A DNA stretch of 39,577 nucleotides from sequence record MZ648215.1, one strand, 5' to 3'. The notes under the pieces were generated by a model that saw nothing but the letters and a program-made list of their open reading frames with translations, made no database searches and had not been told where the DNA came from. Positions within the stretch are counted from its first letter, which is position 1. The number at the start of each line of letters is the position of its first letter. The translations under genes were made by a program, and so were the position numbers. Positions 6,066 to 36,190 of this stretch are shown piece by piece. This DNA is from Escherichia phage vB_EcoP_IMEP24.

Positions 6066-6083
6066 ACTATCACTATAGGATTA
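6061..6083 (+). promoter_or_regulatory. Phage RNAP promoter (phi1.1-like)
   Basis: tctaaactatcactatagga, +1 G at 6078. Confidence 0.8.
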
Positions 6084-6124
6084 GACTCAAGGTCATGACT
6101 CAAAGTCGTGGCCTTCATGATTAA
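6081..6124 (+). other. RNase III-type processing hairpin (R1.1-like)
   Basis: TTAGACTCAAGGTCAT..GTGGCCTTCATGATTAA; 10-bp stem with G.U wobbles; same element recurs at 13401 and 36152. Confidence 0.5.
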
Positions 6125-6154
6125 CCCTATAACCTAAACAACTGGAGCTACAAC

Positions 6155-6334
6155 ATGTATCAGAACACTATCAACTTCGAGCGCATCCGTGAACGTCAGC
6201 AGACTGAAGATTATATTCCGAAGGGACGCAAGCTGAACAAGACCAAGCGTGGTGGTGGTGTCAAGGGTGCTTTCCGTAACGCTGAAGGTAAAGACTCTCT
6301 GGTAAACCAAGAGAAATACTTCGTAGGAGCATAA
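6155..6334 (+). CDS. Gene 1.1-like protein (59 aa)
   Basis: Below the ORF track cutoff; RBS ggag; shares KGRKLNKTKR with T7 gp1.1. Confidence 0.65.
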   Translation: MYQNTINFERIRERQQTEDYIPKGRKLNKTKRGGGVKGAFRNAEGKDSLVNQEKYFVGA

Positions 6335-6338
6335 CGCT

Positions 6339-6602
6339 ATGGGCCGACTTTATAGTGGCAACCTAAACGCTTTCAAAGCAGCGTGTAACAGGCTCTATCA
6401 GTTAGACTTCTGCGTGATACAGAAGGATTGGTACGAGGCGCATCTTCGGAAAGAGTGCATGAGACTTCAAGTCGAGGACCGAGCTGGTAACATCTTCGCG
6501 CTTAAGACCTTCGCTCACCACGATGAAGACGTACTGTACAACACTGCAACAGGCTTCCTTAACTGCCTCGCTAACCAACTCGACACATGGAGAAAATCAT
6601 AA
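6339..6602 (+). CDS. Gene 1.2 protein (host dGTPase inhibitor homolog)
   Basis: MGRLYSGNLxAFKAA...HHDEDVL matches T7 gp1.2 along whole length; 87 aa. Confidence 0.85.
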   Translation: MGRLYSGNLNAFKAACNRLYQLDFCVIQKDWYEAHLRKECMRLQVEDRAGNIFALKTFAHHDEDVLYNTATGFLNCLANQLDTWRKS

Positions 6603-7663
6603 TGACTACGACTATTAAAACTAACCCGCACCGCGCTGTAGATTACTCTGAGTCTGGCGTTAAGAAGGCTCTGGAAGCTGCTGGGTCGCTGGAAGCTGAA
6701 GTGAAGTACGATGGTGTCCGGTTGAACCTTACGGTCTTCCCTACTGGTGAGACTCAATGGCTGAGCCGTGAGTCCAAAGAGCTTCCAGCACTTCAGCATC
6801 TGAAGTCAGAACATGGGAGTCCTACCGAATTAACAAACTGTGGAGACTGGCGCTGGTTCCTGAAGCAAGCAGGACATGAGGTCTCTGGCCTGATGATTGA
6901 CGGTGAGGTCATGGTCAAGGGTGTAGACTTCAATACGTCTTCAGGTCTCATCCGAACGAAGTGGTTGAAGCAAAAGAACTTTGAGTTTTCAACTGGTGAG
7001 CACTGGGGTAAGGACAGGAAGAAAGAGAAGCTACCATTCTGTCTGGACCAGAGGTTCATCAAAGTGGTCGTCTACGGGGTCATCGACCTTAACGTCATCA
7101 CCGACCCGACAGCCGAAGGTCCTATCCATAGCGTCACACGCCTGAAGGCCGAAGCTATCGTCCCTCTCCTCCAGAAATACTTCCCTGAAATCGACTGGGT
7201 TCTGTCTGAGTCACACACGGTCTATGACCTTGAGTCGCTCAACTCCCTGTACGAACAGAAGCGTCTGGAAGGACACGAGGGTCTGGTAGTCAAGGACCCG
7301 CTTGGTAAATACAAGCGTGGCAAGAAGTCTGGCATGTGGAAAATGAAGCCTGAGGAGACCATCGACGGGACCGTGTGTGGCCTAGTGTGGGGGACTCCGG
7401 GTAAGGCCAACGAAGGTAAGGTGATTGGCTTTGAGGTTCTGCTTGAGGATGGCATGGTGGTTAACGCCTGTGGTCTGACTGAAGAACAGAAGGACGAGTT
7501 CACACTAGCTGTTAAGACTCAGGAGCTAAACGGTGACAGCCACGCCTATGAAGGATGGCAGTGTGAGGTCCTATTCATGGAGAGGTTCCCTGATGGCTCC
7601 CTTCGTCACCCTAGCTTCAAGTGCTGGCGCGGGACGGAAGACAATCCAACCGTTAAGAGCTAA
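6602..7663 (+). CDS. ATP-dependent DNA ligase (T7 gene 1.3 homolog)
   Basis: KYDGVR adenylation motif, LMIDGEVMVKGVDFNTSSGL, EGHEGLVVKDP, KRGKKSGMWKMKPE, DGSLRHPSF; start placed at ATG 6602 (MTTTIKTNP matches T7 N-terminus), overlapping 1.2 stop. Confidence 0.93.
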   Translation: MTTTIKTNPHRAVDYSESGVKKALEAAGSLEAEVKYDGVRLNLTVFPTGETQWLSRESKELPALQHLKSEHGSPTELTNCGDWRWFLKQAGHEVSGLMIDGEVMVKGVDFNTSSGLIRTKWLKQKNFEFSTGEHWGKDRKKEKLPFCLDQRFIKVVVYGVIDLNVITDPTAEGPIHSVTRLKAEAIVPLLQKYFPEIDWVLSESHTVYDLESLNSLYEQKRLEGHEGLVVKDPLGKYKRGKKSGMWKMKPEETIDGTVCGLVWGTPGKANEGKVIGFEVLLEDGMVVNACGLTEEQKDEFTLAVKTQELNGDSHAYEGWQCEVLFMERFPDGSLRHPSFKCWRGTEDNPTVKS

Positions 7664-7672
7664 CTAAACGTC

Positions 7673-7710
7673 AACCCAGTGGTCTTCGGACTGCTGGGTT
7701 TCTTTGCTTT
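7673..7710 (+). terminator. Rho-independent terminator (early terminator TE equivalent)
   Basis: AACCCAG..CTGGGTT stem followed by TTCTTTGCTTT; located right after ligase as in T7. Confidence 0.65.
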
Positions 7711-7746
7711 GTGCTAACAAGCTATCGTTTGGGGTACCAGCCTGAC

Positions 7747-7769
7747 CCTAAGCTATCACTATAGGACAA
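7747..7769 (+). promoter_or_regulatory. Phage RNAP promoter
   Basis: cctaagctatcactatagga, +1 G at 7764 (one variant base at -13). Confidence 0.7.
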
Positions 7770-7797
7770 CCATAACTTCGACCTAAGGAGGCCGACC

Positions 7798-8058
7798 ATG
7801 TTTAAGAACTTAATGTTCAACCGTTATACCAGTACATTCCACCTGTCTCACAACCCGTTCGCTTGCATTAAGCGCAACGAGAAGCTGGGCTACTTCGGGA
7901 AGGCCGTTAAGCTGTCACCTACAGTCTTCGCTCTGATTACTCCGGGCAAAGTTGAAGAGGCCCGACAGAAGCGTGAGACCAACGTACCTGTGGTCTACAC
8001 CAAGTGGCCTCGCGTTCGTCTGTTCGTTGAGTTCGTGAAGGAGGTGGTCAATGACTAA
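7798..8058 (+). CDS. Gene 1.6-like protein
   Basis: RBS aggagg; pattern similarity to T7 gp1.6 (LSPTVFALITPG; KWPRVRLFVEFVKEV). Confidence 0.7.
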   Translation: MFKNLMFNRYTSTFHLSHNPFACIKRNEKLGYFGKAVKLSPTVFALITPGKVEEARQKRETNVPVVYTKWPRVRLFVEFVKEVVND

Positions 8059-8479
8059 GCACGAGCGGATAGTAGTGAAACTGGTAGAACAGAACACCGA
8101 TAAACCAGATGACCATGACTCCTGTGCAGGGACATCATGCTATGGCGTAGATTGTAGTGGTTGCCCCTTCGACGATAATGACGATGGGGAGATGACTTTA
8201 GGCAAACTCCGCGAGTCCATCAAGCCAGCAGCTACCGAAGATGGTGTACGCAAGCCATCCCACTATCAGGTCTTTGACGGTGTGGAATCCATTGAGATTA
8301 TCGCTCGGTCCATGACTGTCAGTGAGTTCCGTGGTTTCTGCATGGGTAACGTCCTGAAGTATCGACTCCGAGCTGGTAAGAAGTCAGAGCTGGCTACTAT
8401 GGAGAAGGACCTGAACAAAGCAGCCTTCTATCAGGAGCTGTTCGACCTACATAAAGGTAAGTGCTATGCTGCCGAGTGA
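8051..8479 (+). CDS. Gene 1.7-like protein (nucleotide kinase family in T7)
   Basis: C-terminal half matches T7 gp1.7 (PSHYQVFDGVESIEIIARSMTVSEFRGFCMGNVLKYRLRAGKKSELA); RBS aggagg. Confidence 0.8.
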   Translation: MTKHERIVVKLVEQNTDKPDDHDSCAGTSCYGVDCSGCPFDDNDDGEMTLGKLRESIKPAATEDGVRKPSHYQVFDGVESIEIIARSMTVSEFRGFCMGNVLKYRLRAGKKSELATMEKDLNKAAFYQELFDLHKGKCYAAE

Positions 8480-8561
8480 GTGGTGCGAGCGTAAATTTGA
8501 AGAGACAGGTAACGTAGATTACCTTGAACTCTATAACCAATGGAAGGAGCGTGGTCTATGA
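8466..8561 (+). CDS. Small ORF (31 aa), gene 1.8 position
   Basis: Short ORF between 1.7 and 2 with stop overlapping gene 2 start; weak RBS; positional call only. Confidence 0.3.
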
Positions 8562-8713
8562 CCGATGAGAAGAAATACATCGTGGAGCTTGAGGGTCGCG
8601 TTCAGTCCTTCGAGGTTCCGGTGTACGCAAAGTCTCTTGAAGAGGCTACCCTGAAGTCCCAAGAGTATGAGGACGCTGGGTTTGTGGTCGGACGGATTCG
8701 TCCTGAGACCTAA
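8558..8713 (+). CDS. gp2-like inhibitor of host RNA polymerase (51 aa)
   Basis: Below ORF track cutoff; [15 protein letters not shown]...[10 protein letters not shown] matches T7 gp2 core; RBS ggaaggag. Confidence 0.8.
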
Positions 8714-8731
8714 ACTATCACTGTAGGACAG
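8709..8731 (+). promoter_or_regulatory. Phage RNAP promoter (phi2.5-like), variant
   Basis: cctaaactatcactgtagga; A to G at -3; +1 G at 8726. Confidence 0.6.
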
Positions 8732-8771
8732 ACGTCAAGTTCGTAACTTTTAAATTAGGAGATTTACACAG

Positions 8772-9470
8772 ATGGCTAAAGAGCAACTGAAGACTTTCAC
8801 CACTCCGGTAGCTGGTATCGTTGAGCCGTACGCATGGCTGAACAAAGCAGACACCAAGTTTAACGAGCGTGGTGAGCATAAGGTTAACCTGACATTCGAC
8901 CTGAGCAACCCGAAGGTCCGTAAGATGATTGATGTCTTACAGAAGATTCACGACGATGCGTATGCGAAAGCACTCGCAGACCACGAGAAGAACCCACCTC
9001 AGGTTCAGCGTGGCAAGAAGCCTATTGAACCACGAGAAGGCGACATGCCGTGGATTGAGAATGGTGACGGTACTGTTACCCTGAAGTTTAAATGCTTCGC
9101 GTCTTACCTGAAGGATGGTAAGTCAGAGCCTATCGTATTACGGTTCTACGACACCGATGCTAAGTTAATCCGTGACGTCCCGAATATTGGCGCTGGCTCC
9201 AAACTGAAGGTCAAGTTTAAAGTCCTGCCGTTCAAGTGGAACGCTGCGACTGGTGCAAGCGTTAAGCTCCAGCTTGAGTCCTGCCTTCTGGTAGAACTGA
9301 AGGAGTGGAAAGGGGATGGTGCTGGTGGAGATGGTGGCTGGGGTGATGATGAAGACCTCGGTACTGGCTACAAAGCGTCAACCGATGGTGACTTCGGGTC
9401 TGATGACTTTGGTGACGATGGTTCCGAAGGCGGTGACGACTCCAACTCTGGTGGCGATTACGACTTCTAA
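8772..9470 (+). CDS. Single-stranded DNA-binding protein gp2.5
   Basis: MAKE...AEPYAW, GDMPWxxNGDGT, SKLKVKFK..VKLQLESxxLVEL, acidic C-terminal tail ending DYDF, as in T7 gp2.5. Confidence 0.93.
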   Translation: MAKEQLKTFTTPVAGIVEPYAWLNKADTKFNERGEHKVNLTFDLSNPKVRKMIDVLQKIHDDAYAKALADHEKNPPQVQRGKKPIEPREGDMPWIENGDGTVTLKFKCFASYLKDGKSEPIVLRFYDTDAKLIRDVPNIGAGSKLKVKFKVLPFKWNAATGASVKLQLESCLLVELKEWKGDGAGGDGGWGDDEDLGTGYKASTDGDFGSDDFGDDGSEGGDDSNSGGDYDF

Positions 9471-9922
9471 TGGCCCAATGGTCTGCAAAACGGGGGCACT
9501 CTGTGGGTGCCTACCGCTCTGGACTTGAAGCCAAGAACCAGCAGTGGCTGGAACAGAACGGCGTCAAAGCGGAGTACGAAAGCCATTATATCAACTATGT
9601 GATTCCGGCTTCCGACCACAAGTACACACCAGACTTTATCCTTCCTAACGGTATCATCGTGGAGACCAAAGGTATCTTCGATAGTGATGACCGTAAGAAG
9701 CACCTTCTGGTACGAGAACAGCACCCAGAGTTAGACATCCGGTTCGTGTTCTCAAGTTCCCGCTCCAAGTTATACAAAGGGTCCCCGACCACGTATGGCT
9801 CATGGTGCGAAAAGAACGGCTTTAAGTTTGCCGATAAGTTCATCCCGGTTGAGTGGCTGCGAGAGGTGACTGTACGTCTGCCTTCTGGTATACTCATTCC
9901 CAAGAAGAAAGGAGTTAAGTGA
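9470..9922 (+). CDS. Endonuclease I (Holliday junction resolvase, T7 gene 3)
   Basis: YVIPASxHxYTPDFxLPNGIxVETKG, DDRKKHLLxREQHPELDIRxVFSSSRxKLYKGSPT matches T7 endo I. Confidence 0.95.
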   Translation: MAQWSAKRGHSVGAYRSGLEAKNQQWLEQNGVKAEYESHYINYVIPASDHKYTPDFILPNGIIVETKGIFDSDDRKKHLLVREQHPELDIRFVFSSSRSKLYKGSPTTYGSWCEKNGFKFADKFIPVEWLREVTVRLPSGILIPKKKGVK

Positions 9923-10146
9923 TGACTCAAGAAGTTAAGGTCGTTCGTCAGCGTCTGACCATTGATAAAATCCCGGTAGGCTATGCGTTTATCGTCCACG
10001 GTAAGCCGGGTGAAGTGTACGTGAAGATTAGTAACTCTCACGTCTTCAACCATAAGTTGCTCCAGATGCACACCACGGATGCTAACCGTTTCCAGCGTCA
10101 TCTGAACCTCGTAGCTGTAGAGCTGGTGGTGTACGATGGTGAGTAA
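9922..10146 (+). CDS. Hypothetical protein (74 aa)
   Basis: ORF between endo I and lysozyme with RBS aaaggag; start taken at ATG 9922. Confidence 0.5.
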   Translation: MTQEVKVVRQRLTIDKIPVGYAFIVHGKPGEVYVKISNSHVFNHKLLQMHTTDANRFQRHLNLVAVELVVYDGE

Positions 10147-10594
10147 GGTTCAGTTCAACCCACGGTCCCGGACTGACGCTATCTTCGTTCACTGTTCGGC
10201 TACCAAGCCAGATATGGACATCGGAGTAGAGACCATCCGTATGTGGCACAAGCAGCAAGGCTGGCTGGACGTAGGCTACCACTTTATCATCAAGCGTGAT
10301 GGTACTGTGGAAGAGGGCCGCCCGGTCAATGTCGTAGGGTCACACGTTAAGGACTGGAACTCCAAGTCCGTAGGCGTCTGCCTTGTAGGTGGAATCAACG
10401 CTAAGGGTCAGTTTGAAGCTAACTTCACTCCAGCCCAGATGAATTCCCTTCGCAACAAGCTGGCTGACCTGAAGGCCCTATATCCTCAGGCAGAAATCAA
10501 AGCACACCATGACGTAGCACCAAAGGCGTGTCCAAGTTTTGACTTGCAACGCTGGCTGTCTACCAATGAACTGGTCACTTCCGACCACGGTTGA
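10136..10594 (+). CDS. Lysozyme / N-acetylmuramoyl-L-alanine amidase (T7 gene 3.5)
   Basis: TDAIFVHCSATKP, WHKxQGWLDVGYHFIIKRDGTVExGR, GVCLVGGI, AHHxVAPKACPSFDL, ELVTSDHG; near-collinear with T7 lysozyme. Confidence 0.96.
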   Translation: MVSKVQFNPRSRTDAIFVHCSATKPDMDIGVETIRMWHKQQGWLDVGYHFIIKRDGTVEEGRPVNVVGSHVKDWNSKSVGVCLVGGINAKGQFEANFTPAQMNSLRNKLADLKALYPQAEIKAHHDVAPKACPSFDLQRWLSTNELVTSDHG

Positions 10595-10618
10595 TAAACT
10601 CTAAAGGAGAACAACTCA

Positions 10619-10834
10619 ATGATTAAACTTATCGAATTTCTTGGTCGTCTGGTGGTGCGTGGCTATCGTCGTGCTGCGGTACTGGAACGAAAGGTAGAAA
10701 AGAAGACTGCTGACGGTGCGGCTGATGCTGCTGCTCTGGCTGACAAGCTGACCATCGCGTCACTGGAAGCTGGAATGAAGGTGCGTCAAGCTGACACCAA
10801 AGCTGACCAGTTGGCTCAGTTCTTCAAAGCCTAA
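10619..10834 (+). CDS. Hypothetical protein (71 aa), Ala-rich
   Basis: ORF with RBS aaaggaga; stop overlaps downstream promoter. Confidence 0.5.
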   Translation: MIKLIEFLGRLVVRGYRRAAVLERKVEKKTADGAADAAALADKLTIASLEAGMKVRQADTKADQLAQFFKA

Positions 10835-10852
10835 ACTATCACCTTAGGGATG
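10830..10852 (+). promoter_or_regulatory. Phage RNAP promoter, divergent variant
   Basis: cctaaactatcaccttaggga; two changes at -4/-3; +1 G at 10847. Confidence 0.45.
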
Positions 10853-10902
10853 GGACTATGAGTCCTGTCCCTTTGTTAGCATTTTTGATTAAGGAGTGAC
10901 CA

Positions 10903-11079
10903 ATGGATGGTGTGCCAAGACACATGAGGTATTACGTTGGTAATACTGGGAAGAACCGAAGGTCTAAACTCAAAGAGAGACTAAAGCGGGAAGTACCTGA
11001 TGCTAATCAACGCGCTGCTGTACTTGCTATTATGGAGGAATACGCCATTCTGTATCACCTAAAGTTTACTAAGGAGTGA
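10903..11079 (+). CDS. Hypothetical basic protein (58 aa)
   Basis: Below ORF cutoff; preceded by taaggagtgaccaATG, a 16-bp string repeated exactly at the gene 4 start. Confidence 0.5.
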   Translation: MDGVPRHMRYYVGNTGKNRRSKLKERLKREVPDANQRAAVLAIMEEYAILYHLKFTKE

Positions 11080-12783
<1,704 letters not shown>

Positions 12784-12837
12784 GGAGGAGTACATTGCTA
12801 AGAAAACTTAAAGCTCGCTACCATCGGTTCATGTACA

Positions 12838-13386
12838 ATGGAGGGTTCCATTCTAATGAGAAACTTAATCAACGGTAAGACTCTGACAGAAGTACAGCAG
12901 GTCCTTGGACCGAAGGAGGGCCTTGAGTCCTTCACTTCACGCTGCACTGGTCGGACGTTAGCTCGAGCACTACTGTTCATTTCTACAGTCATGACTCATG
13001 GTTCTCTCGACCTGAAGCCACTGCGCGGTAACTTGGGAGACCAAGAGATTGACTTGGTGAAATTCCAGATTAACCAACGTCTGGACCAGATGGGACTCGT
13101 TGGGTTCTCATGGTCTGGCGACGTTCTGAATTACTACCCGTTCGAGGAGTATCAAGATGTTAAAGAGATTGTACGTGAAGTTAAAGTCGAAGTATCACCT
13201 TTCAATGGGGAAATGGTGGCACCAAGAAGCTATGGTGTTGAGCAACATTCTGAAGGACCAGCGATTCACGTCGAAAGCGTGGAACAAAGCTACCCAGAAG
13301 TGCGCGTATCATCTAGCAAGAGTGCAGTAGTTGGTGAGATGGAAGTCTTGGAACCTCTGGTCCCGGACATGACTCCACCAGCTTAA
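12838..13386 (+). CDS. Hypothetical protein (182 aa; alternative start 12856)
   Basis: ORF in the gene 4.x slot; SD ggaggg favours ATG at 12856; no recognised similarity. Confidence 0.5.
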   Translation: MEGSILMRNLINGKTLTEVQQVLGPKEGLESFTSRCTGRTLARALLFISTVMTHGSLDLKPLRGNLGDQEIDLVKFQINQRLDQMGLVGFSWSGDVLNYYPFEEYQDVKEIVREVKVEVSPFNGEMVAPRSYGVEQHSEGPAIHVESVEQSYPEVRVSSSKSAVVGEMEVLEPLVPDMTPPA

Positions 13387-13403
13387 CTATCACTTTAGGA
13401 TAG
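13381..13403 (+). promoter_or_regulatory. Phage RNAP promoter, variant
   Basis: gcttaactatcactttagga; A to T at -3; +1 G at 13398. Confidence 0.55.
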
Positions 13404-13440
13404 ACTCAAGGTCATTCACACCGAGTGGCCTTTATGATTA
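13401..13440 (+). other. RNase III-type processing hairpin
   Basis: TAGACTCAAGGTCAT..GTGGCCTTTATGATTA; same box as 6081 and 36152. Confidence 0.5.
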
Positions 13441-13461
13441 GACTAAAGCGGAGGATTAACC

Positions 13462-17305: not shown

Positions 17306-17431
17306 TCTACTGGGCCGGACTTCTGGCCCTTTACTGCATGTACAAGTGGTTCGGGTCGAACAACCGTCCTAAACACTGAGTCTAACCGATAGTCATATCC
17401 TATCAATCCAACAGTCATCCATAGGTGAAAC

Positions 17432-17454
17432 ACTAAACTATCACTATAGGGACT
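17432..17454 (+). promoter_or_regulatory. Phage RNAP promoter (class III type, phi6.5-like)
   Basis: cactaaactatcactatagggac; +1 G at 17449. Confidence 0.85.
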
Positions 17455-17515
17455 TTAGGACCTAAGATATGACTATAAGATAGACTTTAGTCTTAACTTA
17501 AAGAGGAGATTCAAG

Positions 17516-18031: not shown

Positions 18032-18436
18032 ATGCTACCATATCTCAACTCACGCGAAGGTCGCCTCATGTGCGCTTGTCGCCTCTGGGAAGACGGGCAG
18101 TCTAACTTCAAGTCATTCGAGGACTTCAAGGCTCATACTTACCGTATGGCTGACGAGTTCGACGGTGAAGAGTACACAATCTACGATGTCTCAGGTCAAC
18201 CAGTAGCGTATCTCTACATGCTGGCTACCGCATCTTGGCACCGACCGACTCCCGGTCTTGACCTTTCAATCGTCGCTATTCGTCGTGACTCGCAGTCCTC
18301 CCGCAAGGTTCTTGAGACTGTAAGGCACATCATAGACGAAGAGTGCAAGCGTTGGGGTCTTGGCTGGTATTCTCGTGTCAAGCATGTTTCTGGGTCGGTA
18401 GACATCGTAACAACTAAGGAGATTAACCGTGGGTAA
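18032..18436 (+). CDS. Gene 7-like protein
   Basis: ORF of T7 gp7 size and position; similarity not verified. Confidence 0.55.
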   Translation: MLPYLNSREGRLMCACRLWEDGQSNFKSFEDFKAHTYRMADEFDGEEYTIYDVSGQPVAYLYMLATASWHRPTPGLDLSIVAIRRDSQSSRKVLETVRHIIDEECKRWGLGWYSRVKHVSGSVDIVTTKEINRG

Positions 18437-25764: not shown

Positions 25765-25788
25765 CTTATTGAAGGGCCTATAGATTTA

Positions 25789-25811
25789 CCTTAACTATCA
25801 CTATAGGGACT
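25789..25811 (+). promoter_or_regulatory. Phage RNAP promoter (phi13-like), inside a 12-bp inverted repeat
   Basis: ccttaactatcactatagggac; +1 G at 25806; flanked by AAGGGCCTATAG (25772-25783) and CTATAGGCCCTT (25810-25821). Confidence 0.85.
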
Positions 25812-25840
25812 ATAGGCCCTTAAGGTTATAAGGAGACTTT

Positions 25841-26886: not shown

Positions 26887-26897
26887 GAGGAGGACTA

Positions 26898-29180
26898 ATG
26901 GCTAGTAATATTGAATCAGCTCTTGCTAATCGGACTATGGGTCGTGGCAGAGCGCCGGGTAAAACTATCGCCGTCAACTATCAAGCAGCAAACGTTCAGG
27001 CTCCCACTGGGGACTCCGGGCTGGCTCGTGCATTAACTAACTTCGTTGAGTCTGGGACAGGATTGTACAAGCAGTTCAAGGACGATGAGAAGACCAGAGC
27101 TGACGAGCGGTCTAACGAGATTATCCGTAAACTGACACCTCAGCAAAGACGTGAGGCTATCCAGAACGGCACATTGCTGTATCAGGACGACCCTTACGCT
27201 ATGGAAGCACTTCGAGTCAAGACTGGTCGTAATGCTGCCTTTGCTGTAGACGACGAGATTAACGTTAAGATTCAGAACGGTGAGTTCCGCACACGTCAGG
27301 AAATGGAAGAATATCGCCACCAGCGACTTCAGGATGCCGCTAAGTCCTATGCTGAAGAGGCGGGTATTAACCCTACCGACGAGTTCTTCCAGCGTGGCTT
27401 CAACGATAACATCACGGACCGAAACATCGCTATCTACGGGTCCTTCAATAAGTATTTCAGCAAGCAGTCTGAAGAGACAGCAATGTTGAACACTCGTATT
27501 GAGCTGAACTCGTTCCTTAACGATGGGGACCTAATGCGTTCGCCTGAGTCTGGAAAGACCTTCATGGCCTACCTTCGGGATGGACTGACGACTGCTGCTA
27601 TACCTTCGGACCAGAGAGCACGAGAGGTCATCACCCAGACGGTCCGTGACGCAATCCAGAAGTCAGGAGGCTCAAACTTCCTACAGCAAGTCCGTGGCGA
27701 GCGTATCACCCTTAACGGTGTTGACGCTACCATCGAAGAGATTGTAGGACCTGACGTCTTCAATGCTGCTATGGTTGAGGCCCAAGGTACTGAGTATAAA
27801 CTGGTGGCTAAGTATCAGGAAGACTTGGCGTTAGGCGTTCAGTCTGCGATTCTTCAGGACGACCCAACCATCGGTCTTGCCCAGATTCAGAAACTCAAGG
27901 AGCAGAACAACCTGCTTCAGCCGGGTGAAGAACTCACGCCTCAGCGCCAGATGCTTATTAATGCCGAAGCGAGCTTACTGGAAGCGGTCAAGCGTAAGTC
28001 TGCTGAACAGGCGAAGGAGAACACTAAGTTAATCCAGACTCAGAACAAGCAACTGGTAATAGACCAAGTGTATCAGCGACGTCTGGCTGGTGACAACGTG
28101 TCCACCAACTATGAGGACCTTCCGGTCTCTGACGCTACAGGTGAGTTCAAGCGTTCAGATATGAACAACTATGCGTCTGCCAAGCTACAGCAGATTGACC
28201 AGATGGACATCCCTGAGGCTGCTAAAGATGCTCAGAAGGTGGCATTGTTAAGAGCTGACACTAACAACGGTCCGTTCCGTAATGCCTTCCAGACGCTGAC
28301 TCAGGACGCTGCTGGGGAGTGGCAAGCTGCGGTCATCCGTGGACAGTACGACCCAGACAAGATGAAACGCTTCGAGTCTCTTCGTCGTGCCTACACTCAG
28401 GACCCTTCAAGTTTTGCTTCGCTATATCCAGACCAAGCTCAGTTGTTCTCTACGTTCGACCAGATGGACAAGATGGGTCTGGACCCTCAGACGATGATTG
28501 AAGCTGATAAGCAAGCTGCAAGTCAAAGCCGTGAGATGCGCATGGAGTCAGACAAGGCGTGGCAGGAGTTGAAGAACGACTCCAAGAACACCCAGTTGTC
28601 TCGCCTCCCAACGTCTCTGGACTCAAGTGCTCGTAAGGTCTGGGACTCATGGTACTATCGTACAGGTAACGCTGACGCTGCAACGCAGCAGACTCAACGC
28701 TGGCTGAATGAGAACACCGTAACGTTCCAGTCTGAAGGTTCTGACGGTAAGTCAATAGGCATGGTGTCTAAGCACCAGCTTATGGTCGGGGATAACCCAG
28801 AGTCGTGGCAGGTGGGTCGAGACATCATCGACACCGCTCGTCAGCAGCTCATTAAGGCCAACCCTTGGGTAGTGAACTCTCAGTTGTCCGTTGTTGAACA
28901 GAACGGCTCTATCTTCCTCCAAGACGCTACGGGGACTATTCGTATTAGATACGATAAAGAACTTGTAGGTAAACTCTACCGCGAACAACAGCAGAAGGCA
29001 CAAGATGCCGCATATGCTCAGGCAGAACGTGACGCTAACAAGCGAGCGCGTATCGTCGGGACTAAAGCTGCTGGTGACAAACGTCGAGCTGACCGAGAGG
29101 CCAACATCGAGAAGCGCGGAGGGATGTACAATGACGTCTCATTGGAGGGTATCGCAAACGTACTAATCGGTAAGGAGTAA
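26898..29180 (+). CDS. Internal virion protein C (T7 gene 15)
   Basis: ADERSNEIIRKLTPxQRREAxxNGTLLYQDDPYAMEALRVKTGRNAA, EMEEYRH, GEFKxSDMxNYA, IRxRYDKEL match T7 gp15. Confidence 0.95.
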   Translation: MASNIESALANRTMGRGRAPGKTIAVNYQAANVQAPTGDSGLARALTNFVESGTGLYKQFKDDEKTRADERSNEIIRKLTPQQRREAIQNGTLLYQDDPYAMEALRVKTGRNAAFAVDDEINVKIQNGEFRTRQEMEEYRHQRLQDAAKSYAEEAGINPTDEFFQRGFNDNITDRNIAIYGSFNKYFSKQSEETAMLNTRIELNSFLNDGDLMRSPESGKTFMAYLRDGLTTAAIPSDQRAREVITQTVRDAIQKSGGSNFLQQVRGERITLNGVDATIEEIVGPDVFNAAMVEAQGTEYKLVAKYQEDLALGVQSAILQDDPTIGLAQIQKLKEQNNLLQPGEELTPQRQMLINAEASLLEAVKRKSAEQAKENTKLIQTQNKQLVIDQVYQRRLAGDNVSTNYEDLPVSDATGEFKRSDMNNYASAKLQQIDQMDIPEAAKDAQKVALLRADTNNGPFRNAFQTLTQDAAGEWQAAVIRGQYDPDKMKRFESLRRAYTQDPSSFASLYPDQAQLFSTFDQMDKMGLDPQTMIEADKQAASQSREMRMESDKAWQELKNDSKNTQLSRLPTSLDSSARKVWDSWYYRTGNADAATQQTQRWLNENTVTFQSEGSDGKSIGMVSKHQLMVGDNPESWQVGRDIIDTARQQLIKANPWVVNSQLSVVEQNGSIFLQDATGTIRIRYDKELVGKLYREQQQKAQDAAYAQAERDANKRARIVGTKAAGDKRRADREANIEKRGGMYNDVSLEGIANVLIGKE

Positions 29181-29184
29181 CATA

Positions 29185-32100
29185 ATGGCGACTCGTGGTA
29201 TTCGCAATAACAATCCGGGTAACATCCGGGTAAGTAAGGACCAATGGGAAGGAATGACTGGAGATGATGGCGCATTCGTCACCTTCGATAGTCCAGAGTC
29301 TGGCGTCCGAGCTTTAGGTAAAAACCTGCTGTCCTACGGTCGCCAAGGTTATGACTCCATCGAGAAGATTATCAACCGATGGGCGCCTCCTAACGAGAAC
29401 GACACTAAGGCTTATATTGACTCAGTGGTGGCTGCAACTGGTATTCCAGCTACCCAGAGTCTCGACCTATCGGACCCTGACACCCTGTCTTCTCTGGCTC
29501 AAGCTATCAGCTTCCATGAGACAGGCTCCCGGTACGACCCTGAAGTCTATCAGCAGGGAGTCGCACGAGCACTCAATGGCATTAGCCCAAAGACTCCACC
29601 AGTAAGCGCTAACGTATTTGACGCACTCACGGAAGGACTCAAGGCTAAACCTAAAGTAGCTCTGGGCGAGAACCTTCCGACCGCTGCTGGTCTAAACATT
29701 GAGGGTCAAGCACCTGAAGCTCCCAACGAATCGTTCGGTGAGATGTTCTATAAGTCTACTGGCGAGACCATGCAGGAACGAGAGGATCGCTCTACGTGGT
29801 TCGGTTTTGGTGCGGCTACAGAAGCTGAAGTGAAGAACTCTATGGTCGGCGTGGCTGTCCGCGCTGGTCAGACCGAGGACTCACTTGATGTCATTGGCGA
29901 TGTGTTCAACCCGACCCGATGGAACAACCATAAGTGGTCTCGTGAGGAGCTGGACCAGATTCGTAACGCTGGGGTGCTGCCTCAGTATTACGGAGTCATT
30001 ACCGGTGGCTCACCTCAGAACCTGACCAAGCTTATCAACTTGGCGCTTGAGAACCAGAAGTTGGACCAAGAGAAGGCCAAGGCTGGGACTGGCGCTCAAC
30101 TGGCGGCTGGTGTGATTGGTGCTGGCGTGGACCCTCTGACCTACGTTCCTATTGCTGGGCAGGTAGGCAAAGGTGGGAAGCTAATCAACAAGATGTTCAC
30201 TGTGGCCGCTCAGTCTGGTGCTCTGGCTGGTGTGTCTGAGATGGCCCGTACCTCAGTAGCTGGGGGCGATGCTCATGTGGCTGAAGCTATCCTTGGTGGT
30301 GCTCTCTTCGGTGGTGGTATGACTGCTATCGCTGATGGACTTGGAAGAGCCTTAGGTCGTAACACTAACGAGTTCGCTGGTCCAGCAACACGTCTGGAAG
30401 CTCGTGAGACAGCCCGTAACGTTGATGGTCAGGACCTGTCTCGTCTCCCTATTCAGGAAGGTGAGCCGACCTTTACTCATCAAGGAGTTAAGTTCGCTGA
30501 TGTTCCGAATGAGCCGGGTAGTGTACGACTGGAAGATGGTTCAATCCTGATTGGTGAGAACCCTCTGAACCCTAAGACACGTCAAGTCTTTGACGAAGTG
30601 ATTGAGCCAGAACGTGCCGCTGCTGGTGTGAACCTTGGTGGACTTACCGAGATTGGCCTGAAGCTGCTTCGGTCTGAGAACCCTGAGATTCGTGGAGTAG
30701 CTGCTGACTTAGTGCGCTCACCGACTGGTATGCAGTCGGGGGCCTCAGGTAAAATCGGGACAACTGCGTCAGACGTGTTCGAGAGACTTCGTGCTGTGGA
30801 CCATCGGTTCTACAACGACATCGACGATGCGGTCACTGAGGCACTAAAAGACCCGTACTTCCAGACAGCATTCTGGCGAGACTCTGGCGCATTCCGTCAG
30901 GACATCTACCAGCGTGTGTCTATGGCTATCGAAGATGGTAGCGGAAACCTGAAGGCTGAACTGACTCCGGGAGAACTGAAAGTATATGACCTACTGAAGA
31001 ACCAGTTTGACGCCAAGCGTGAGATGATGGAGAATCCAGCTATGTTTGGTCGGACAGACGCTCAGTCTATCTTTCCGGGTAGCCGCTTCAAGGGAACCTA
31101 CGTCCCTCATGTGTACAGCAAACAGATGAAGGAGCTGTACATCAAGGAGCTTGGGAGTCCAGAGGCGCTACAGGAGGCCATCAAGAAGTCATGGTTGACC
31201 AGCTATGCGTCTCGACCTGAAGTCAAGAAACGCGTGGACGAGGCACTCTTAGAGGCTGACCCTACGTTGACTCCAGAGGGACTTGCTGCTGCGGTCGATA
31301 AGTACGCCAACGATAAGGCTTACGGTATCTCTCACACCGAGCAGTTCGAACGTTCATCCGTAATGGAAGAGAACATCAACGGTCTGGTTGGTCTGGAGAA
31401 CAACAGCTTCCTTGAGGCTCGTAACCTGTTCGATAGCGATATGTCAATCGTCCTACCTAATGGTCAGACCTTCAGTGTCAACAACCTGCGTGAGTGGGAC
31501 ATGGACAAGATTGTCCCGGCCTACAACCGTCGAGTTAATGGCGATATTGCTATCATGGCTGGTACAGGCAAAACCACGAAGGACATGAAGGACTTGGTTG
31601 AGACCATGATGAACAAGGCTGGGGATGACGGTAAGTTGAAAGGTGAAGTATCCACCTTACGTGACACCTTGAAGATTCTAACTGGTCGTGCTCGACGTGA
31701 TGGCGCTGATGATGCGGCCTTCGCTACCGTGATGCGCACAATGACAGACCTATCGTTCTTCGCTAAGAATGCCTACATGGGTGTTCAGAACTTAACGGAG
31801 ATTGGTGGTATGCTGGCTCGTGGCAACGTTCGTGCAATGCTTCATGGAGTCCCGATTTTCCGTGACCTAGCCTTCCGTAACAAGAAGGTAGGGGCCTCAG
31901 AGATTAAGGACCTGCACAATGTTATCTTCGGTAAGGAACTGGACGACTCAATCCGTCCGTCTAAACAAGATGTCATTGACCGTCTGCGATCCTATAGCGA
32001 CCTAGGTCGCGGGGCAGCTACAGCTCTGGGGACTGCCAAGTACTACACTGGTGAACTTGCAGCACGCTCTCCGCTCACTAAAGTCCTCAACGGTACGACC

Positions 32101-33072
32101 AACTACCTGTTAGATGCTGGACGTCAAGGATTCCTGTCCGACATCGTGGAGCATAGTCTGACTGGCAGTAAGCGTCGATTCGATGACCGCTGGCTGAAGA
32201 CCGCTGGTATCTCTGACGAGCAGTGGAAGGGCATTAAGTCCCTAATCCGTGAGTCAGTGACGCGTGGTCCAGACGGGAAGTACACCATCAAGGATAAGAA
32301 GGCGTTTAGTCAGGACCCAAGGGCTATGGACCTGTGGCGTATGGGTGACACCATCGCTGACGAAACGTTACTCCGGCCCCACAAGCTGTCAAACATGGAC
32401 GCCAAGGCTTATGGTCCTCTCGCTAAGACTGTCCTTCAGTTTAAGAACTTCGTCATCAAGTCCATCAATGGACGTACCATGCGAACCTTCTATAACGCCA
32501 CGAAGAACAACCGAGCGATGGACGCTGCTCTGTCCACTGTGATCTCTATGGGTCTTGCTGGTATCTACTACATGGCTCAGGCGCATGTCAAGGCTTACGC
32601 TATGCAGGATGGTCGAGACCGTGACTACCTCAAGCAAGCTCTGGACCCGACGATGATTGGATATGCAGCTCTATCACGTAGTTCACATCTTGGTGGACCA
32701 CTTGGGGTAGCTAACATTCTTGGGGGTATAGCTGGGTATGAGGACACTAAGATGCTCCGTTCGTCTATCCTACCTCGTTCTCCCACAGAGAAGCCTGAAC
32801 GTGCCATCGCGTATGGTGCAGCTACAAGTGACCCTGTGATGAATATTGTTGGTAACTTCTTGGAGCAGGTTCCAGCTTTCGGATATGCTGCTAACGTTGG
32901 CGCTTCGGCTTACAACTTGGCTGGATACCTCAAGGCCGATACTCGTGTCAACGAGCGTGACTACATGACCGGGATGTATAATACGTTCCGTGAACTGGTT
33001 CCTAACGACCCAATTACCCAGAAGCTGTTACTTGGAACGTTTGAGGAGCAAGGTATCCACATCAAGGACTAA
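29185..33072 (+). CDS. Internal virion protein D (T7 gene 16), with N-terminal domain unlike the T7 transglycosylase domain
   Basis: From about aa 190 on collinear with T7 gp16 (TGGSPxNL, AGxIGAGVDPLxYVP, RLEARETARN, VRSPTGMQSGASGK, ENPAxFG, GTYVPHVY, YGISHxxQF, GLxxNSFLEARNLFDSD, RRVNGDIAIMxxTGKTTK); N-terminal ~130 aa (MATRGIRNNNPGNIR...) diverge. Confidence 0.95.
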   Translation: MATRGIRNNNPGNIRVSKDQWEGMTGDDGAFVTFDSPESGVRALGKNLLSYGRQGYDSIEKIINRWAPPNENDTKAYIDSVVAATGIPATQSLDLSDPDTLSSLAQAISFHETGSRYDPEVYQQGVARALNGISPKTPPVSANVFDALTEGLKAKPKVALGENLPTAAGLNIEGQAPEAPNESFGEMFYKSTGETMQEREDRSTWFGFGAATEAEVKNSMVGVAVRAGQTEDSLDVIGDVFNPTRWNNHKWSREELDQIRNAGVLPQYYGVITGGSPQNLTKLINLALENQKLDQEKAKAGTGAQLAAGVIGAGVDPLTYVPIAGQVGKGGKLINKMFTVAAQSGALAGVSEMARTSVAGGDAHVAEAILGGALFGGGMTAIADGLGRALGRNTNEFAGPATRLEARETARNVDGQDLSRLPIQEGEPTFTHQGVKFADVPNEPGSVRLEDGSILIGENPLNPKTRQVFDEVIEPERAAAGVNLGGLTEIGLKLLRSENPEIRGVAADLVRSPTGMQSGASGKIGTTASDVFERLRAVDHRFYNDIDDAVTEALKDPYFQTAFWRDSGAFRQDIYQRVSMAIEDGSGNLKAELTPGELKVYDLLKNQFDAKREMMENPAMFGRTDAQSIFPGSRFKGTYVPHVYSKQMKELYIKELGSPEALQEAIKKSWLTSYASRPEVKKRVDEALLEADPTLTPEGLAAAVDKYANDKAYGISHTEQFERSSVMEENINGLVGLENNSFLEARNLFDSDMSIVLPNGQTFSVNNLREWDMDKIVPAYNRRVNGDIAIMAGTGKTTKDMKDLVETMMNKAGDDGKLKGEVSTLRDTLKILTGRARRDGADDAAFATVMRTMTDLSFFAKNAYMGVQNLTEIGGMLARGNVRAMLHGVPIFRDLAFRNKKVGASEIKDLHNVIFGKELDDSIRPSKQDVIDRLRSYSDLGRGAATALGTAKYYTGELAARSPLTKVLNGTTNYLLDAGRQGFLSDIVEHSLTGSKRRFDDRWLKTAGISDEQWKGIKSLIRESVTRGPDGKYTIKDKKAFSQDPRAMDLWRMGDTIADETLLRPHKLSNMDAKAYGPLAKTVLQFKNFVIKSINGRTMRTFYNATKNNRAMDAALSTVISMGLAGIYYMAQAHVKAYAMQDGRDRDYLKQALDPTMIGYAALSRSSHLGGPLGVANILGGIAGYEDTKMLRSSILPRSPTEKPERAIAYGAATSDPVMNIVGNFLEQVPAFGYAANVGASAYNLAGYLKADTRVNERDYMTGMYNTFRELVPNDPITQKLLLGTFEEQGIHIKD

Positions 33073-33090
33073 ACTATCACTATAGGAAAC
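33068..33090 (+). promoter_or_regulatory. Phage RNAP promoter (phi17-like)
   Basis: ctaaactatcactataggaaac; +1 G at 33085. Confidence 0.8.
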
Positions 33091-33136
33091 GGGAGGCGCT
33101 ACCATAGGTCTCCATTTAAATCACAAAGGAGGCATA

Positions 33137-35320
33137 ATGTCCACGATTACACAATTCCCTTCAGGAAACACTCAGTACAGGATTGAGTTCGACTACCTAG
33201 CCAGAACGTTTGTTGTTGTTACGCTGGTGAATAGCTATAACCCTACCATGAACCGTGTACTGGAAGTTGGTCGAGATTACCGATTCCTTAATCCAACGAT
33301 GATTGAGATGTTGGTTGACCAATCAGGTTTCGACATCGTTCGTATTCACCGTCAGACTGGAACTGACTTAGTGGTAGACTTCAGGAATGGCTCAGTGTTG
33401 ACAGCTAGTGACCTGACCAATGCAGAGCTTCAGGCTATCCATATTGCAGAAGAAGGTCGAGACCAAACGGTTGACTTAGCGAAGGAATATGCCGATGCTG
33501 CTGGTAGCTCTGCTGGCAACGCTAAGGATAGCGAGGACGAAGCACGACGAATCGCTGCGAGTATCCAGGCAGCTGGTAAAATTGGTTATATTACCCGTCG
33601 CTCCTTCGAGAAAGGCTTCAACGTTACAACATGGAACGAGGCCCTGCTATGGGAAGAGGATGGTGATTATTACCGCTGGGATGGTACGCTTCCAAAGAAC
33701 GTTCCTGCTGGTTCAACTCCTGAATCATCTGGTGGTATTGGGCTAGGTGCGTGGGTTAGTGTTGGTGATGCTTCATTACGATCGGCTCTACAGGCAGAAG
33801 ATGGTGCAAAAAATATTGGCTCTGGTAAAAGAAAGCTGATTGATAATTTGAATGACATTAAACACAGTGGTGATTATTCAACTTTACAACAGGCGATTAA
33901 TGATACCACCTCAAGGGGTCGGGTTCTTGTTTCTCCAGGCGTATATAGCGAAAGCGTTTCAACCGGCAATGCTGACATTGAGGGTTCTGGTTATGCATCT
34001 TTATTAAAAACAGGGAGTGAAGATTATGCAATTAAAGTATTACAATCAGTGCCACACTGGGAGCGTCGAAGTATTTCAAAAATAAGCCTACAAGGAACAG
34101 CAACACCTAATTCCGTGGGGGTGCTATATGACCCGGATGATATGCTCTCTGGGAGATGGGATATCAGTTATGTAGGTATGGCTGACTTTGGTGTTTGTAT
34201 TAAAAAGCCAACTGGCAATATAGGTAATACATATCAAACTGTTAACTTCAGAGCTTCTGAGTATGGGTATCGTGCTGAAAGCGTGACTGGCATGCATTCT
34301 GGCTGCGATACATTTCGTGACTGTTATTTCCAAGGGATATCCAAATACTGTATTGATATAGTGAATGCTCAAGATGGCGGTGGATCTGTGCAAATTCAAG
34401 ATAGCATCATGGAGCAATGCACTGGTGGTGGCATAAGGATTGACTATAATAACATTGTTCCTTATACACCTATTGTTATACGAAACGTATGGTTTGAACT
34501 CATTGCTACGGCATCTACCATTGACCGCGATGGTTCTGAAGAAGTTCCGAGACAGGTTAAATTAATAAACACACCACAGGCATACGTTGAAGAGTCATAC
34601 TTAACTAATATTGAATTAATTAACTCAAACTTAATTGCGCGTAACTGTCGAATTGACACTGTTAGTTCGAATATTTACAGCATGAACGTTGACGCTAATA
34701 GTTCATTTATTGTTGAGAATCTTTATGCAGGGGGGGAAGTTGGCGGAGTCCCGATTATTAAAAGCGTTGCATCTCAATCTGGATTATTTGCGAGTAGTAA
34801 CTTAAGTTTGCGTGGAACTCCCACGGTGCAAGCTATCAAGGGGGCCATGGGGTATCATGGCACTGTACGTGCAGCAGATTTATATTCAGGGGTTGTTGGT
34901 TCTACTACGTGGACATTCCCGGGCACGGAAGAAGTAACAGCAAACTGTGTAGAAGATGGAGTGGCAATTGGTTATGGTTGTGCGGAAGTATCAATCAATG
35001 CTGGGTCATCACAGTTAAGTTCAGAAATTGCCACAATAACTGCCGGGAAGTGGTATGTATGGGGGGTTAACGCTAAACTTGTTTCTGGGACAGGAAACTT
35101 TAGATTCTCAGAATATATTTCAGCAGGTGTTATCTATACACAAGACGGCAAATGGACAAGCACTTTCGGTATTGGAAAAGCGCAATCATCAGGAACAATT
35201 CGATTGTATCTTACTGCACAAACTGACACCGTTATTAGATTGCAAAACTTTTTTATTGTTGAGTTCAATACGGAGGCTGATGCTTTGGCATTTTGTAATG
35301 CGAGAGTTGCAATAGGTTAA
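33137..35320 (+). CDS. Tail fibre / tailspike (gene 17): T7-like N-terminal anchor plus probable beta-helix receptor-binding/depolymerase-type domain
   Basis: N-terminal ~150 aa match T7 gp17 anchor (FxYLARxFVVVTL, DYRF, VDFxxGSxLxAxDL, QxxHxAEExRD); remainder unrelated to T7 fibre and AT-richer. Confidence 0.9.
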   Translation: MSTITQFPSGNTQYRIEFDYLARTFVVVTLVNSYNPTMNRVLEVGRDYRFLNPTMIEMLVDQSGFDIVRIHRQTGTDLVVDFRNGSVLTASDLTNAELQAIHIAEEGRDQTVDLAKEYADAAGSSAGNAKDSEDEARRIAASIQAAGKIGYITRRSFEKGFNVTTWNEALLWEEDGDYYRWDGTLPKNVPAGSTPESSGGIGLGAWVSVGDASLRSALQAEDGAKNIGSGKRKLIDNLNDIKHSGDYSTLQQAINDTTSRGRVLVSPGVYSESVSTGNADIEGSGYASLLKTGSEDYAIKVLQSVPHWERRSISKISLQGTATPNSVGVLYDPDDMLSGRWDISYVGMADFGVCIKKPTGNIGNTYQTVNFRASEYGYRAESVTGMHSGCDTFRDCYFQGISKYCIDIVNAQDGGGSVQIQDSIMEQCTGGGIRIDYNNIVPYTPIVIRNVWFELIATASTIDRDGSEEVPRQVKLINTPQAYVEESYLTNIELINSNLIARNCRIDTVSSNIYSMNVDANSSFIVENLYAGGEVGGVPIIKSVASQSGLFASSNLSLRGTPTVQAIKGAMGYHGTVRAADLYSGVVGSTTWTFPGTEEVTANCVEDGVAIGYGCAEVSINAGSSQLSSEIATITAGKWYVWGVNAKLVSGTGNFRFSEYISAGVIYTQDGKWTSTFGIGKAQSSGTIRLYLTAQTDTVIRLQNFFIVEFNTEADALAFCNARVAIG

Positions 35321-35332
35321 CTTGACATCCTC

Positions 35333-35357
35333 CACGCCCTAAAGGGCGGGGCTTTTC
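35333..35357 (+). terminator. Putative weak rho-independent terminator after gene 17
   Basis: CGCCC-TAAA-GGGCG hairpin followed by GCTTTTC; only four T. Confidence 0.4.
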
Positions 35358-35370
35358 GGATAATTATTGA

Positions 35371-35457
35371 TCAGAACGGGATATCGTCATCGAAGTCCAT
35401 TGGCGGCTCATTACCTCCTTGTGGGCTTTGTTGTTTTGGTGGCTGATGTTGTCGTTG
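35371..35457 (-). pseudogene. Fragment homologous to the 3' end of a bacterial ssb gene (SSB C-terminal tail), antisense to phage genes
   Basis: Minus-strand translation QRQHQPPKQQSPQGGNEPPMDFDDDIPF-stop; last 13 residues equal the recalled E. coli SSB C-terminus (SNEPPMDFDDDIPF); in-frame stop directly upstream, no OB-fold region. Confidence 0.6.
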
Positions 35458-35693
35458 CTAAAAACCATCAAATATCAAAGGCTCTGATGGTTCCCATCTC
35501 TTTACTCTGACTACTGATGACGTAACTGTTAAAGACGTTAATGTGGTTACGACCCTTACTGCTGCCTCTGTGCCATTGGAGTCCTGAACCGGGTAGAGGA
35601 TCGAATGTTGTGGAGGTAGAGGCGAACTACACGCTGACCAACGTATGGTAACAACTTTGGGTCACGGACGACCCGCTTTAAACTGGAGGTTTT

Positions 35694-35888
35694 ATGATTG
35701 AGTTAGACTTCAAGAATGAGGTCCTTAAAGCCTCTCCTATCGTCGGGACCGCTGCGGCTGATGGTGCCAGTCGGTTCTTCTTCGGACTTACACTGAACGA
35801 ATGGTTCTACGTTGCAGCTATCGCGTACACCGTTGTCCAGATTGGTGTGCTAGTCTACAAAACGATTAAAGGAGGTGGTAAAACATGA
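35694..35888 (+). CDS. Class II holin (T7 gene 17.5)
   Basis: LDFxNExxKAxPIVGT, FFGLxLNEWFYVAAIAYTVVQIG matches T7 gp17.5; RBS ggagg. Confidence 0.92.
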   Translation: MIELDFKNEVLKASPIVGTAAADGASRFFFGLTLNEWFYVAAIAYTVVQIGVLVYKTIKGGGKT

Positions 35889-36148
35889 CGCAGATGGACT
35901 TAGAGAAGTTCCTCTTAATGCTAGATACTGAACGTGCTCGACTCATGCTGCAAGACCTGCGGGATGACACTAAGCGTTCACCTCAGCTCTACAACGCCAT
36001 TGAGAAGCTACTTGCTCGTCACAACTTTGTGTTAAGCAAGGTGTCTGTGGACGAGAAGACGCTGGCTGATATGGAGGCCCTGAACGCAGAGTACGATAAG
36101 GTGCTTTCAGCGACTGAGGATAATGACACCGGGTATGGCGTTCAATAA
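35885..36148 (+). CDS. Terminase small subunit (T7 gene 18)
   Basis: FLxMLDT, RRSPQLYNAIxKLLxRH match T7 gp18; ATG overlaps holin stop. Confidence 0.85.
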   Translation: MTQMDLEKFLLMLDTERARLMLQDLRDDTKRSPQLYNAIEKLLARHNFVLSKVSVDEKTLADMEALNAEYDKVLSATEDNDTGYGVQ

Positions 36149-36151
36149 GTG

Positions 36152-36190
36152 TTAGACTCAAGGTCATCGTCAGGTGGCCTTTATGATTAA
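36152..36190 (+). other. RNase III-type processing hairpin (R18.5-like)
   Basis: TTAGACTCAAGGTCAT..GGTGGCCTTTATGATTAA; third copy of the box. Confidence 0.5.

Follow-up and report, generated by a model that had tools for sequence, protein, structure and literature searches.

Three hairpin boxes in the genome of Escherichia phage vB_EcoP_IMEP24 as very probable RNase III processing signals of the T7 type

Three near-identical boxes in a T7-like genome

Escherichia phage vB_EcoP_IMEP24 (sequence record MZ648215.1) carries three copies of a conserved hairpin box which, judged from their sequence, are very probably RNase III processing signals in polycistronic mRNAs, orthologous to the sites R1.1, R4.7 and R18.5 of phages T7 and T3. 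The window that we analysed, 39,577 nt, is a complete T7-like (Kayfunavirus-type) phage genome, since it is bounded by perfect direct terminal repeats of 184 bp (1-184 and 39394-39577). All large open reading frames (ORFs) lie on its + strand, and its nearest database records (Citrobacter phage SH3, Morganella phage MopsHU1 and several Kayfunavirus records) are ~92-97% identical to it. An earlier note on this DNA had pointed out the box at 6081-6124, 13401-13440 and 36152-36190 and had likened the three locations to R1.1, R4.7 and R18.5. Both points held up, the copies in an exact search with shuffled controls and the parallel through alignment with T7 and T3, a shared core and the gene order of T3.

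The exact search of the window for TAGACTCAAGGTCAT, a spacer of 4 to 20 nt and GTGGCCTTYATGATTA matched at three places, each of them on the + strand (6082-6123, 13401-13440 and 36153-36189), and 0 of 100 dinucleotide-preserving shuffles of the window gave a match; the shorter core AAGGTC-N-GTGGCCTT occurs in the window at the same three places only. We refer to the copies as box 1 (R1.1-type hairpin, 6071-6133 with core 6081-6124), box 2 (R4.7-type, 13390-13450 with core 13401-13440) and box 3 (R18.5-type, 36142-36199 with core 36152-36190), all on the + strand and each recognised by the exact motif, by its fold and by a covariance model described below. The arms, of 15 and 16 nt, are identical among the three copies, and the conserved core CUCAAGGUC...GUGGCCUUYAUGA is found in every one of them, its variable Y position sitting in the internal loop, outside the stems. 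The fuller outer sequence that had been proposed for all three applies to copies 1 and 3 (TTAGAC...GATTAA) and not to copy 2 (ATAGAC...GATTAG), leaving TAGAC...GATTA as the part common to all. Between the arms lie spacers of 11, 9 and 6 nt (copies 1, 2 and 3), part of which prolongs the upper stem by 4, 2 and 1 bp (GACU/AGUC, UC/GA and C/G), and the remaining loops of 3, 5 and 4 nt differ as the earlier note had said, together with the stem-extension pairs. The arms had also been described as kept complementary through G·U wobbles: two U·G pairs are indeed present within AAGGUCAU/GUGGCCUU, but they are invariant (3/3 copies), and because they are identical in all three they are wobble pairs rather than compensatory changes between copies. 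When box 3 alone was used as a BLAST query, it matched 755 phage records, all seemingly T7-like, and it had no match in E. coli genomes, which argues that the box was not borrowed from the host.

The boxes share one RNA fold

Folding the RNA of the three copies, the check that the earlier note had suggested, yielded a conserved upper stem, a 4/5 internal loop and a lower stem in 3/3. In the centroid folds the upper stem of each box measures 9-12 bp, the internal loop is formed by 5' ACUC and 3' YAUGA, and the lower stem has 3-8 bp, reaching 6-10 bp when the boxes are folded in read-through context; T7 R1.1, R4.7 and R18.5 adopt the same shape with the same folding tool. In box 1, the upper stem AAGGUCAUGACU/AGUCGUGGCCUU is followed by the internal loop ACUC/CAUGA and by a lower stem that takes in bases -4 to +2 of an adjoining phage promoter, pairing UAUAGG with CCUAUA. 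Box 2 combines the upper stem AAGGUCAUUC/GAGUGGCCUU with the internal loop ACUC/UAUGA and the lower stem CUUUAG/CUAAAG, which uses bases -5 to +1 of its own promoter, and the lower stem of box 3 (GUGUUAG/UUAACAU) overlaps the stop codon of gene 18. Measured against shuffled controls, copy 1 folds at -17.7 kcal/mol (z = -3.3) and copy 3 has z = -3.0. At every site in the window the + strand is more stable than the - strand, by 2-11 kcal/mol; for box 3 the values are -17.2 versus -5.9 kcal/mol.

Stable hairpins with G+C-rich cores at gene ends would also suit terminators or pause sites for host or phage RNA polymerase, but essential genes follow immediately 3' in the same transcription units, and we attach next to no probability to such a role. 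A scan for terminators came up empty at all three boxes, and an intrinsic (rho-independent) terminator was rejected on the ground that no T-run follows any of them.

Likeness to the RNase III sites of T7 and T3

The RNA of T7 R1.1 is the canonical substrate for RNase III from E. coli, having one primary site at which it is cleaved in vivo and in vitro (PMC3839596), and cleavage persists in a 34-nt derivative that is essentially the upper stem, whose proximal and distal boxes are enough to define the site (PMC1540722). Over its 10-bp upper stem and its internal loop (ACUC/UAUGA) box 2 is identical to R1.1 (T7 5843-5902), and all three boxes share with R1.1 the base of the upper stem, AAGGUCAU/GUGGCCUU. 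R1.1 likewise lies directly 3' of a phage promoter and 5' of gene 1.1, and it has the same architecture of lower stem, loop and upper stem. The boxes differ from it in their apical loops and lower-stem sequences, and the lower stem of box 1 extends back into the promoter (-4 to +2), whereas that of T7 R1.1 lies wholly inside the phi1.1A transcript. Cleavage has been demonstrated for T7 R1.1, whereas the boxes of the window are predicted substrates known from sequence.

In T7, the core AAGGTC-N-GTGGCCTT (AAGGUC...GUGGCCUU in the RNA) occurs only at 1441, 5861, 6421 and 13867, which are the hairpins of R0.5, R1.1, R1.3 and R4.7. These T7 names and cut positions reportedly stem from the work of Dunn & Studier in 1983. 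On these coordinates, the known cut at the core sites comes after the YAU in the 3' strand of the internal loop, and the cuts of R0.3, R0.5, R1, R1.1, R1.3, R3.8, R4.7 and R18.5 fall at the expected bond of the hairpin; the coordinate for R0.7 was dropped, as there is no hairpin at that place. The T7 records NC_001604 and V01146 list promoters and terminators, and no RNase III features.

An alignment of the three boxes with seven T7 sites served to build the covariance model; RNAalifold, run de novo on this training alignment, returned the lower stem, the 4/5 internal loop and the upper stem, with 11 of 18 pairs compensated. Searching the window with the model gave six sites, all on the + strand and all between ORFs. 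The boxes scored 56-64 bits (56.4 for box 1, 58.3 for box 2 and 64, the best of the window, for box 3), values that come from members of the training set, and three sites in the early region that had no part in the training scored 26-40 bits. The three copies that had been noticed are not the full set, which comprises at least six sites by this model.

Outside the training set, the model recovered in T3 8 of the 10 stem-loops annotated as 'RNase III recognition site' (R0.3, R0.5, R1, R1.1, R1.3, R4.7, R6.5 and R18.5) and gave no match at E<1 in T3 beyond those eight; R1.1, R4.7 and R18.5, stem_loop features of NC_003298, scored 52-61 bits. T7 R6.5, which is absent from the training set, was detected as well. 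As a negative control we used 725 kb from 80 viral contigs of IMG/VR, each with a match to a 14-nt core and taken from among the matches listed. That core scan gave mostly chance matches, with two T7-like contigs among the matches listed, and at E<1 the model matched, besides these two, only 2 contigs of the control, one of them at E = 0.35. The Rfam 15 models gave zero matches anywhere in the window at the gathering score.

Stems that covary between phages

To the window we added T7, T3, the Kayfunavirus K1F, Klebsiella phage KN1-1, Aeromonas phage MJG and Salmonella phage CHRF_10022, giving a covariation set of 40 sites from 7 genomes. In the alignment of these 40 sites, 93.7% of the cells pair and 15 of 18 pairs show two-sided changes, neither value being reached by any of 500 shuffles (0/500). 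When the 3' partner was slid by 1-3 columns as a control, pairing fell to 27-49% of cells. The de novo RNAalifold result, with its 11 of 18 compensated pairs, agrees with this covariation. G·U pairs are frequent in the 40-site alignment, and this frequency, together with the better folds of the + strand, points to an RNA-level function on the transcribed strand.

A role at the level of DNA, with the boxes acting as recombination or module-exchange junctions, as targets of homing endonucleases or as protein-binding palindromes kept alike by gene conversion, would be in keeping with the identical 15- and 16-nt arms of the three copies and with the accessory ORF, absent from K1F, that borders each box. 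We nonetheless hold it to be extremely improbable: pairing depends on G·U wobbles, which would turn into A·C mismatches in the complementary strand, the - strand is the less stable one at all sites, every site lies on the transcribed strand, and the stems covary as the sequence drifts between phages, indicating selection on RNA pairing. Accessory genes in intergenic spacers are explained more simply as insertions that are tolerated there.

Positions, neighbouring genes and promoters

The sites lie in intergenic spacers, 20-36 nt 5' of the next start codon. Box 1 is flanked by an ORF belonging to the T3 gene 1.05 family (5592-6065) and by one of the Phage_1_1 family (gene 1.1, 6155-6334), after which comes the dGTPase-inhibitor gene 1.2; box 2 lies 26 nt 5' of the start of the DNA polymerase gene (gene 5, 13462); and box 3 lies between the small terminase gene 18 (35885-36148) and an endonuclease VII ORF (36205-36480). 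The earlier note had put the boxes before genes 1.1, 5 and 18.5, which is right for boxes 1 and 2; box 3 does follow gene 18, and the endonuclease VII ORF stands ahead of 18.5. The same arrangement recurs in T3, where the order 1.05, phi1.1/R1.1, 1.1, 1.2 is that of box 1, including the overlap of promoter and R1.1, and where R4.7 stands directly before gene 5, as box 2 does, whereas in T7 gene 4.7 intervenes. R18.5 overlaps the end of gene 18 in both T3 and T7, as does box 3. T3, for its part, is without a promoter at R4.7 and without an endonuclease VII gene after R18.5, and its R1 and R1.3 have no counterpart in the window.

The promoter of the phage polymerase, TAACTATCACTATAGGA, has 11 consensus matches in the window versus 0.12 expected by chance. 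One of the 11, AAACTATCACTATAGGA (6064-6080, + strand, +1 = G6078), abuts box 1 in a phi1.1-type arrangement. The promoter scan also found a putative variant promoter, TAACTATCACTTTAGGA (13384-13400, + strand), with A changed to T at -3, that abuts box 2 and is without a counterpart in K1F. Boxes 1 and 2 start 1-4 nt past the +1 of their promoters, and no phage promoter was found by the scan of the window adjacent to box 3 or to the three early sites. Since promoter bases form part of the lower stems in boxes 1 and 2, the complete helix of these boxes exists only in read-through RNA; for the RNA initiated at 13398, from the promoter of box 2, the minimum-energy fold is the upper stem alone.

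These promoters bear on a further explanation, in which the hairpins are RNA structures that stay uncleaved and act independently of RNase III, as stabilising stem-loops at 5' ends or as translational operators for the downstream genes. Promoter-initiated RNA of boxes 1 and 2 would carry the hairpin at its extreme 5' end, and that of box 2 would be without most of the lower stem and might escape cleavage. Yet box 3, the three early sites and the gene-5 site of K1F have no adjacent phage promoter, and the internal loop and upper stem match a proven RNase III substrate to the nucleotide, for which a generic hairpin would have no need. We consider this explanation very unlikely.

The accessory ORFs beside the boxes deserve a separate remark. 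The gene 1.05-family ORF (5592-6065) and a 182-aa ORF of unassigned function (12838-13386) stand directly 5' of boxes 1 and 2 and have no K1F counterpart. The endonuclease VII ORF (91 aa, Pfam PF02945), which has its own ribosome-binding site, takes the place of the ~40-nt spacer that separates box 3 from the ribosome-binding site of gene 18.5; it is missing from K1F and present in Salmonella phage CHRF_10022.

Proposed processing and its weight

On the reading that the boxes are RNase III processing signals, homology and the biochemistry of T7 R1.1 suggest that the host enzyme would bind a helix of roughly two turns. It would cut the 3' strand only, presumably because the internal loop distorts the helix, and after YAU, that is at 6118^6119, 13435^13436 and 36184^36185, bonds placed by alignment with UAU^GA of T7 R1.1. 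The upstream RNA would then end in an intact upper hairpin that shields it from 3' exonucleases, and the downstream RNA would have its 5' end ~20-36 nt short of the start codon, right before the ribosome-binding site that serves gene 1.1, gene 5 or endonuclease VII/18.5. The early sites at 860, 1183 and 1831 would process the transcript of the host polymerase likewise. Cleavage of a single strand at internal loops is known to leave protective 3' hairpins (PMC3867540, PMC1540722), and in the polycistronic mRNAs of T7 RNase III cuts at specific sites, often beside promoters (PMC6938266).

For boxes 1 and 2 one may further imagine a cassette that sorts transcripts, read-through RNA being cut and protected at its 3' end and promoter-initiated RNA staying uncut with a 5'-terminal hairpin. 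We regard this as a rather doubtful extension. If it were true, the lineage-specific gain of the gene-5 promoter, whose -3 variant is matched by the 3' arm, would represent a recent co-evolution of promoter and processing site in the same nucleotides.

Several points weigh against RNase III processing at the boxes. Copy 2, folded from its own promoter start, is only marginally better than shuffles (z = -1.8), and box 2 has two mismatches in the lower stem of the covariance model; transcripts from 13398 may for these reasons be poor substrates. The 40-site alignment was fitted to the covariance model, which inflates its pairing counts. Boxes 1 and 3 depart from R1.1 in the base pairs of the distal box, which may bear on the published antideterminant rules (PMC1540722). 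Our literature search, which did not cover the K1F genome paper, found no cleavage data for this phage or any Kayfunavirus and no paper describing RNase III sites in K1F-like phages. Finally, the sites may be dispensable, since hosts deficient in RNase III still support the growth of T7 (PMC6938266).

Elements of this class are already known from T7 and T3, with their fold, core, positions and link to promoters; the sites are annotated in the T3 record, and the window shows no departure from that picture. As all this had been settled for the two phages decades earlier, what is understood of RNase III and of expression in the T7 group stays as it was, and the result is a sound annotation, not a discovery. 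Its value lies in the six sites placed in the genome, with predicted scissile bonds, which help to delimit transcript units, the ends of mRNAs and expression cassettes in the engineering of such phages. In the records that we inspected, those of the close relatives K1F and CHRF_10022 and of the more distant KN1-1, the hairpins are unannotated.

Diverged sites in the early region

With the three early sites included, the boxes are the best-conserved half of a family of at least six such sites in the window. The strongest early member, at 1183-1244 on the + strand (40.2 bits, E = 3e-7; -23.8 kcal/mol, z = -4.9), has the internal loop ACUA/ACUGA and occupies the R0.3 position, 5' of an ORF (1275-1835) that matches the Pfam family of ocr (gene 0.3). 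Directly after the ocr gene, at an R0.5-type position, follows the hairpin UAGACGAGAGGUCAU...GGUGGCCUCAAAGAUUA (1831-1893, + strand; 32.8 bits, E = 3e-5; z = -3.5), which was also picked up as a 3-mismatch match to both arms; of the three early sites it is the one for which a predicted cut was derived, at 1878/1879. The weakest member of the family, at 860-927 on the + strand (26.4 bits, E = 1e-3; z = -4.2), lies 5' of a small ORF in the early region (933-1187). It has the same 3' arm, CCTGACTGATAGTCACTAAC, as the 1183 site, the two arms forming a direct repeat of 20 nt (906-925 and 1223-1242); this shared stretch suggests that one of the two sites arose by duplication of the other, together with the ORF 933-1187 between them.

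Equivalent hairpins in related phages

K1F has orthologous hairpins at 5562-5624, 12849-12909 and 36442-36504, with arms nearly identical to those of the boxes, and it shares all six sites of the window, the early ones included (1026-1087 for the 1183 site and 703-770 for the 860 site). The internal loop of its box 3 counterpart reads UAUGG. At the gene-5 site K1F has no promoter (ACTTCTAGGTC), and the lower stem there is better paired than that of the window.

The gene-5 hairpin is fused to a variant promoter both in the window (CACTTTAGGA) and in CHRF_10022 (CACTGTAGGA). In the window, the 3' arm has an A opposite the T at -3 of this promoter (CUUUAG/CUAAAG), a pairing that suggests co-evolution of promoter and processing stem within the same bases.

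Aeromonas phage MJG, a member of the Colwellvirinae with a non-enterobacterial host, has hairpins of the same family at 1551-1609, 2621-2680 and 18335-18392. In the hairpin at 2621-2680, GTGTTAGACTCAAGG...CCTTTATGGTTAACACTAACT is a nearly exact match to the R18.5-type site of K1F, yet this hairpin stands 5' of the RNA polymerase gene. Such a likeness points to either horizontal transfer of the element or a very strong constraint on its sequence.

Other promoter-linked hairpins

At R3.8, R6.5 and R13 of T7 and T3 the hairpin encloses or abuts a phage promoter, and the ACUC/YAUGA box is present only in R6.5 of T7 and T3. Three further elements of the window, none of which (10846-10872, 17389-17476 and 25772-25821) was detected in it by the covariance model, have a comparable layout. 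At 10831-10877, 5' of an ORF (10903-11079) and of the primase/helicase gene, the sequence CTAAACTATCACCTTAGGGA, which resembles a promoter but has diverged, precedes a hairpin of 12 bp (10846-10872), and next comes CCCTTTGTT, as at T7 R3.8 (T7 11198). This arrangement makes it a tentative candidate, likely an R3.8-type RNase III site missed by the R1.1-type model; the motif CCCTTTGTT is not found in K1F.

The two other elements enclose promoters: an 11-bp stem, ATAGTCATATC/GATATGACTAT, at 17389-17476 surrounds the promoter at 17435 (fold z = -3.9), and a 12-bp stem, AAGGGCCUAUAG/CUAUAGGCCCUU, at 25772-25821 surrounds that at 25792 (z = -3.7). R6.5 and R13 of T7 and T3 enclose their promoters in the same way, so that the two candidate stems may tentatively be taken as their analogues. 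Compared with the window, K1F has an identical phi13-type stem and a phi6.5-type region that differs by one base, outside the 11-bp stem.

A phage promoter of perfect consensus also lies at 2530-2546, ~70 nt 5' of the phage RNA polymerase gene (2619-5300), and K1F has its equivalent at 2477; at the same position T7 and T3 have the RNase III site R1 and no phage promoter. If this promoter is active, the phage RNA polymerase could transcribe its own gene. A fourth box after it (2544-2625) was considered and rejected: the transcript begins with GGACUCAAGGUC, which is the left half only, and its fold is no better than shuffles (z = -0.33). Just inside the left terminal repeat, at 200-278, the genome carries the 15-bp unit AGTCCAACAACCTAC repeated in tandem 5.3 times.

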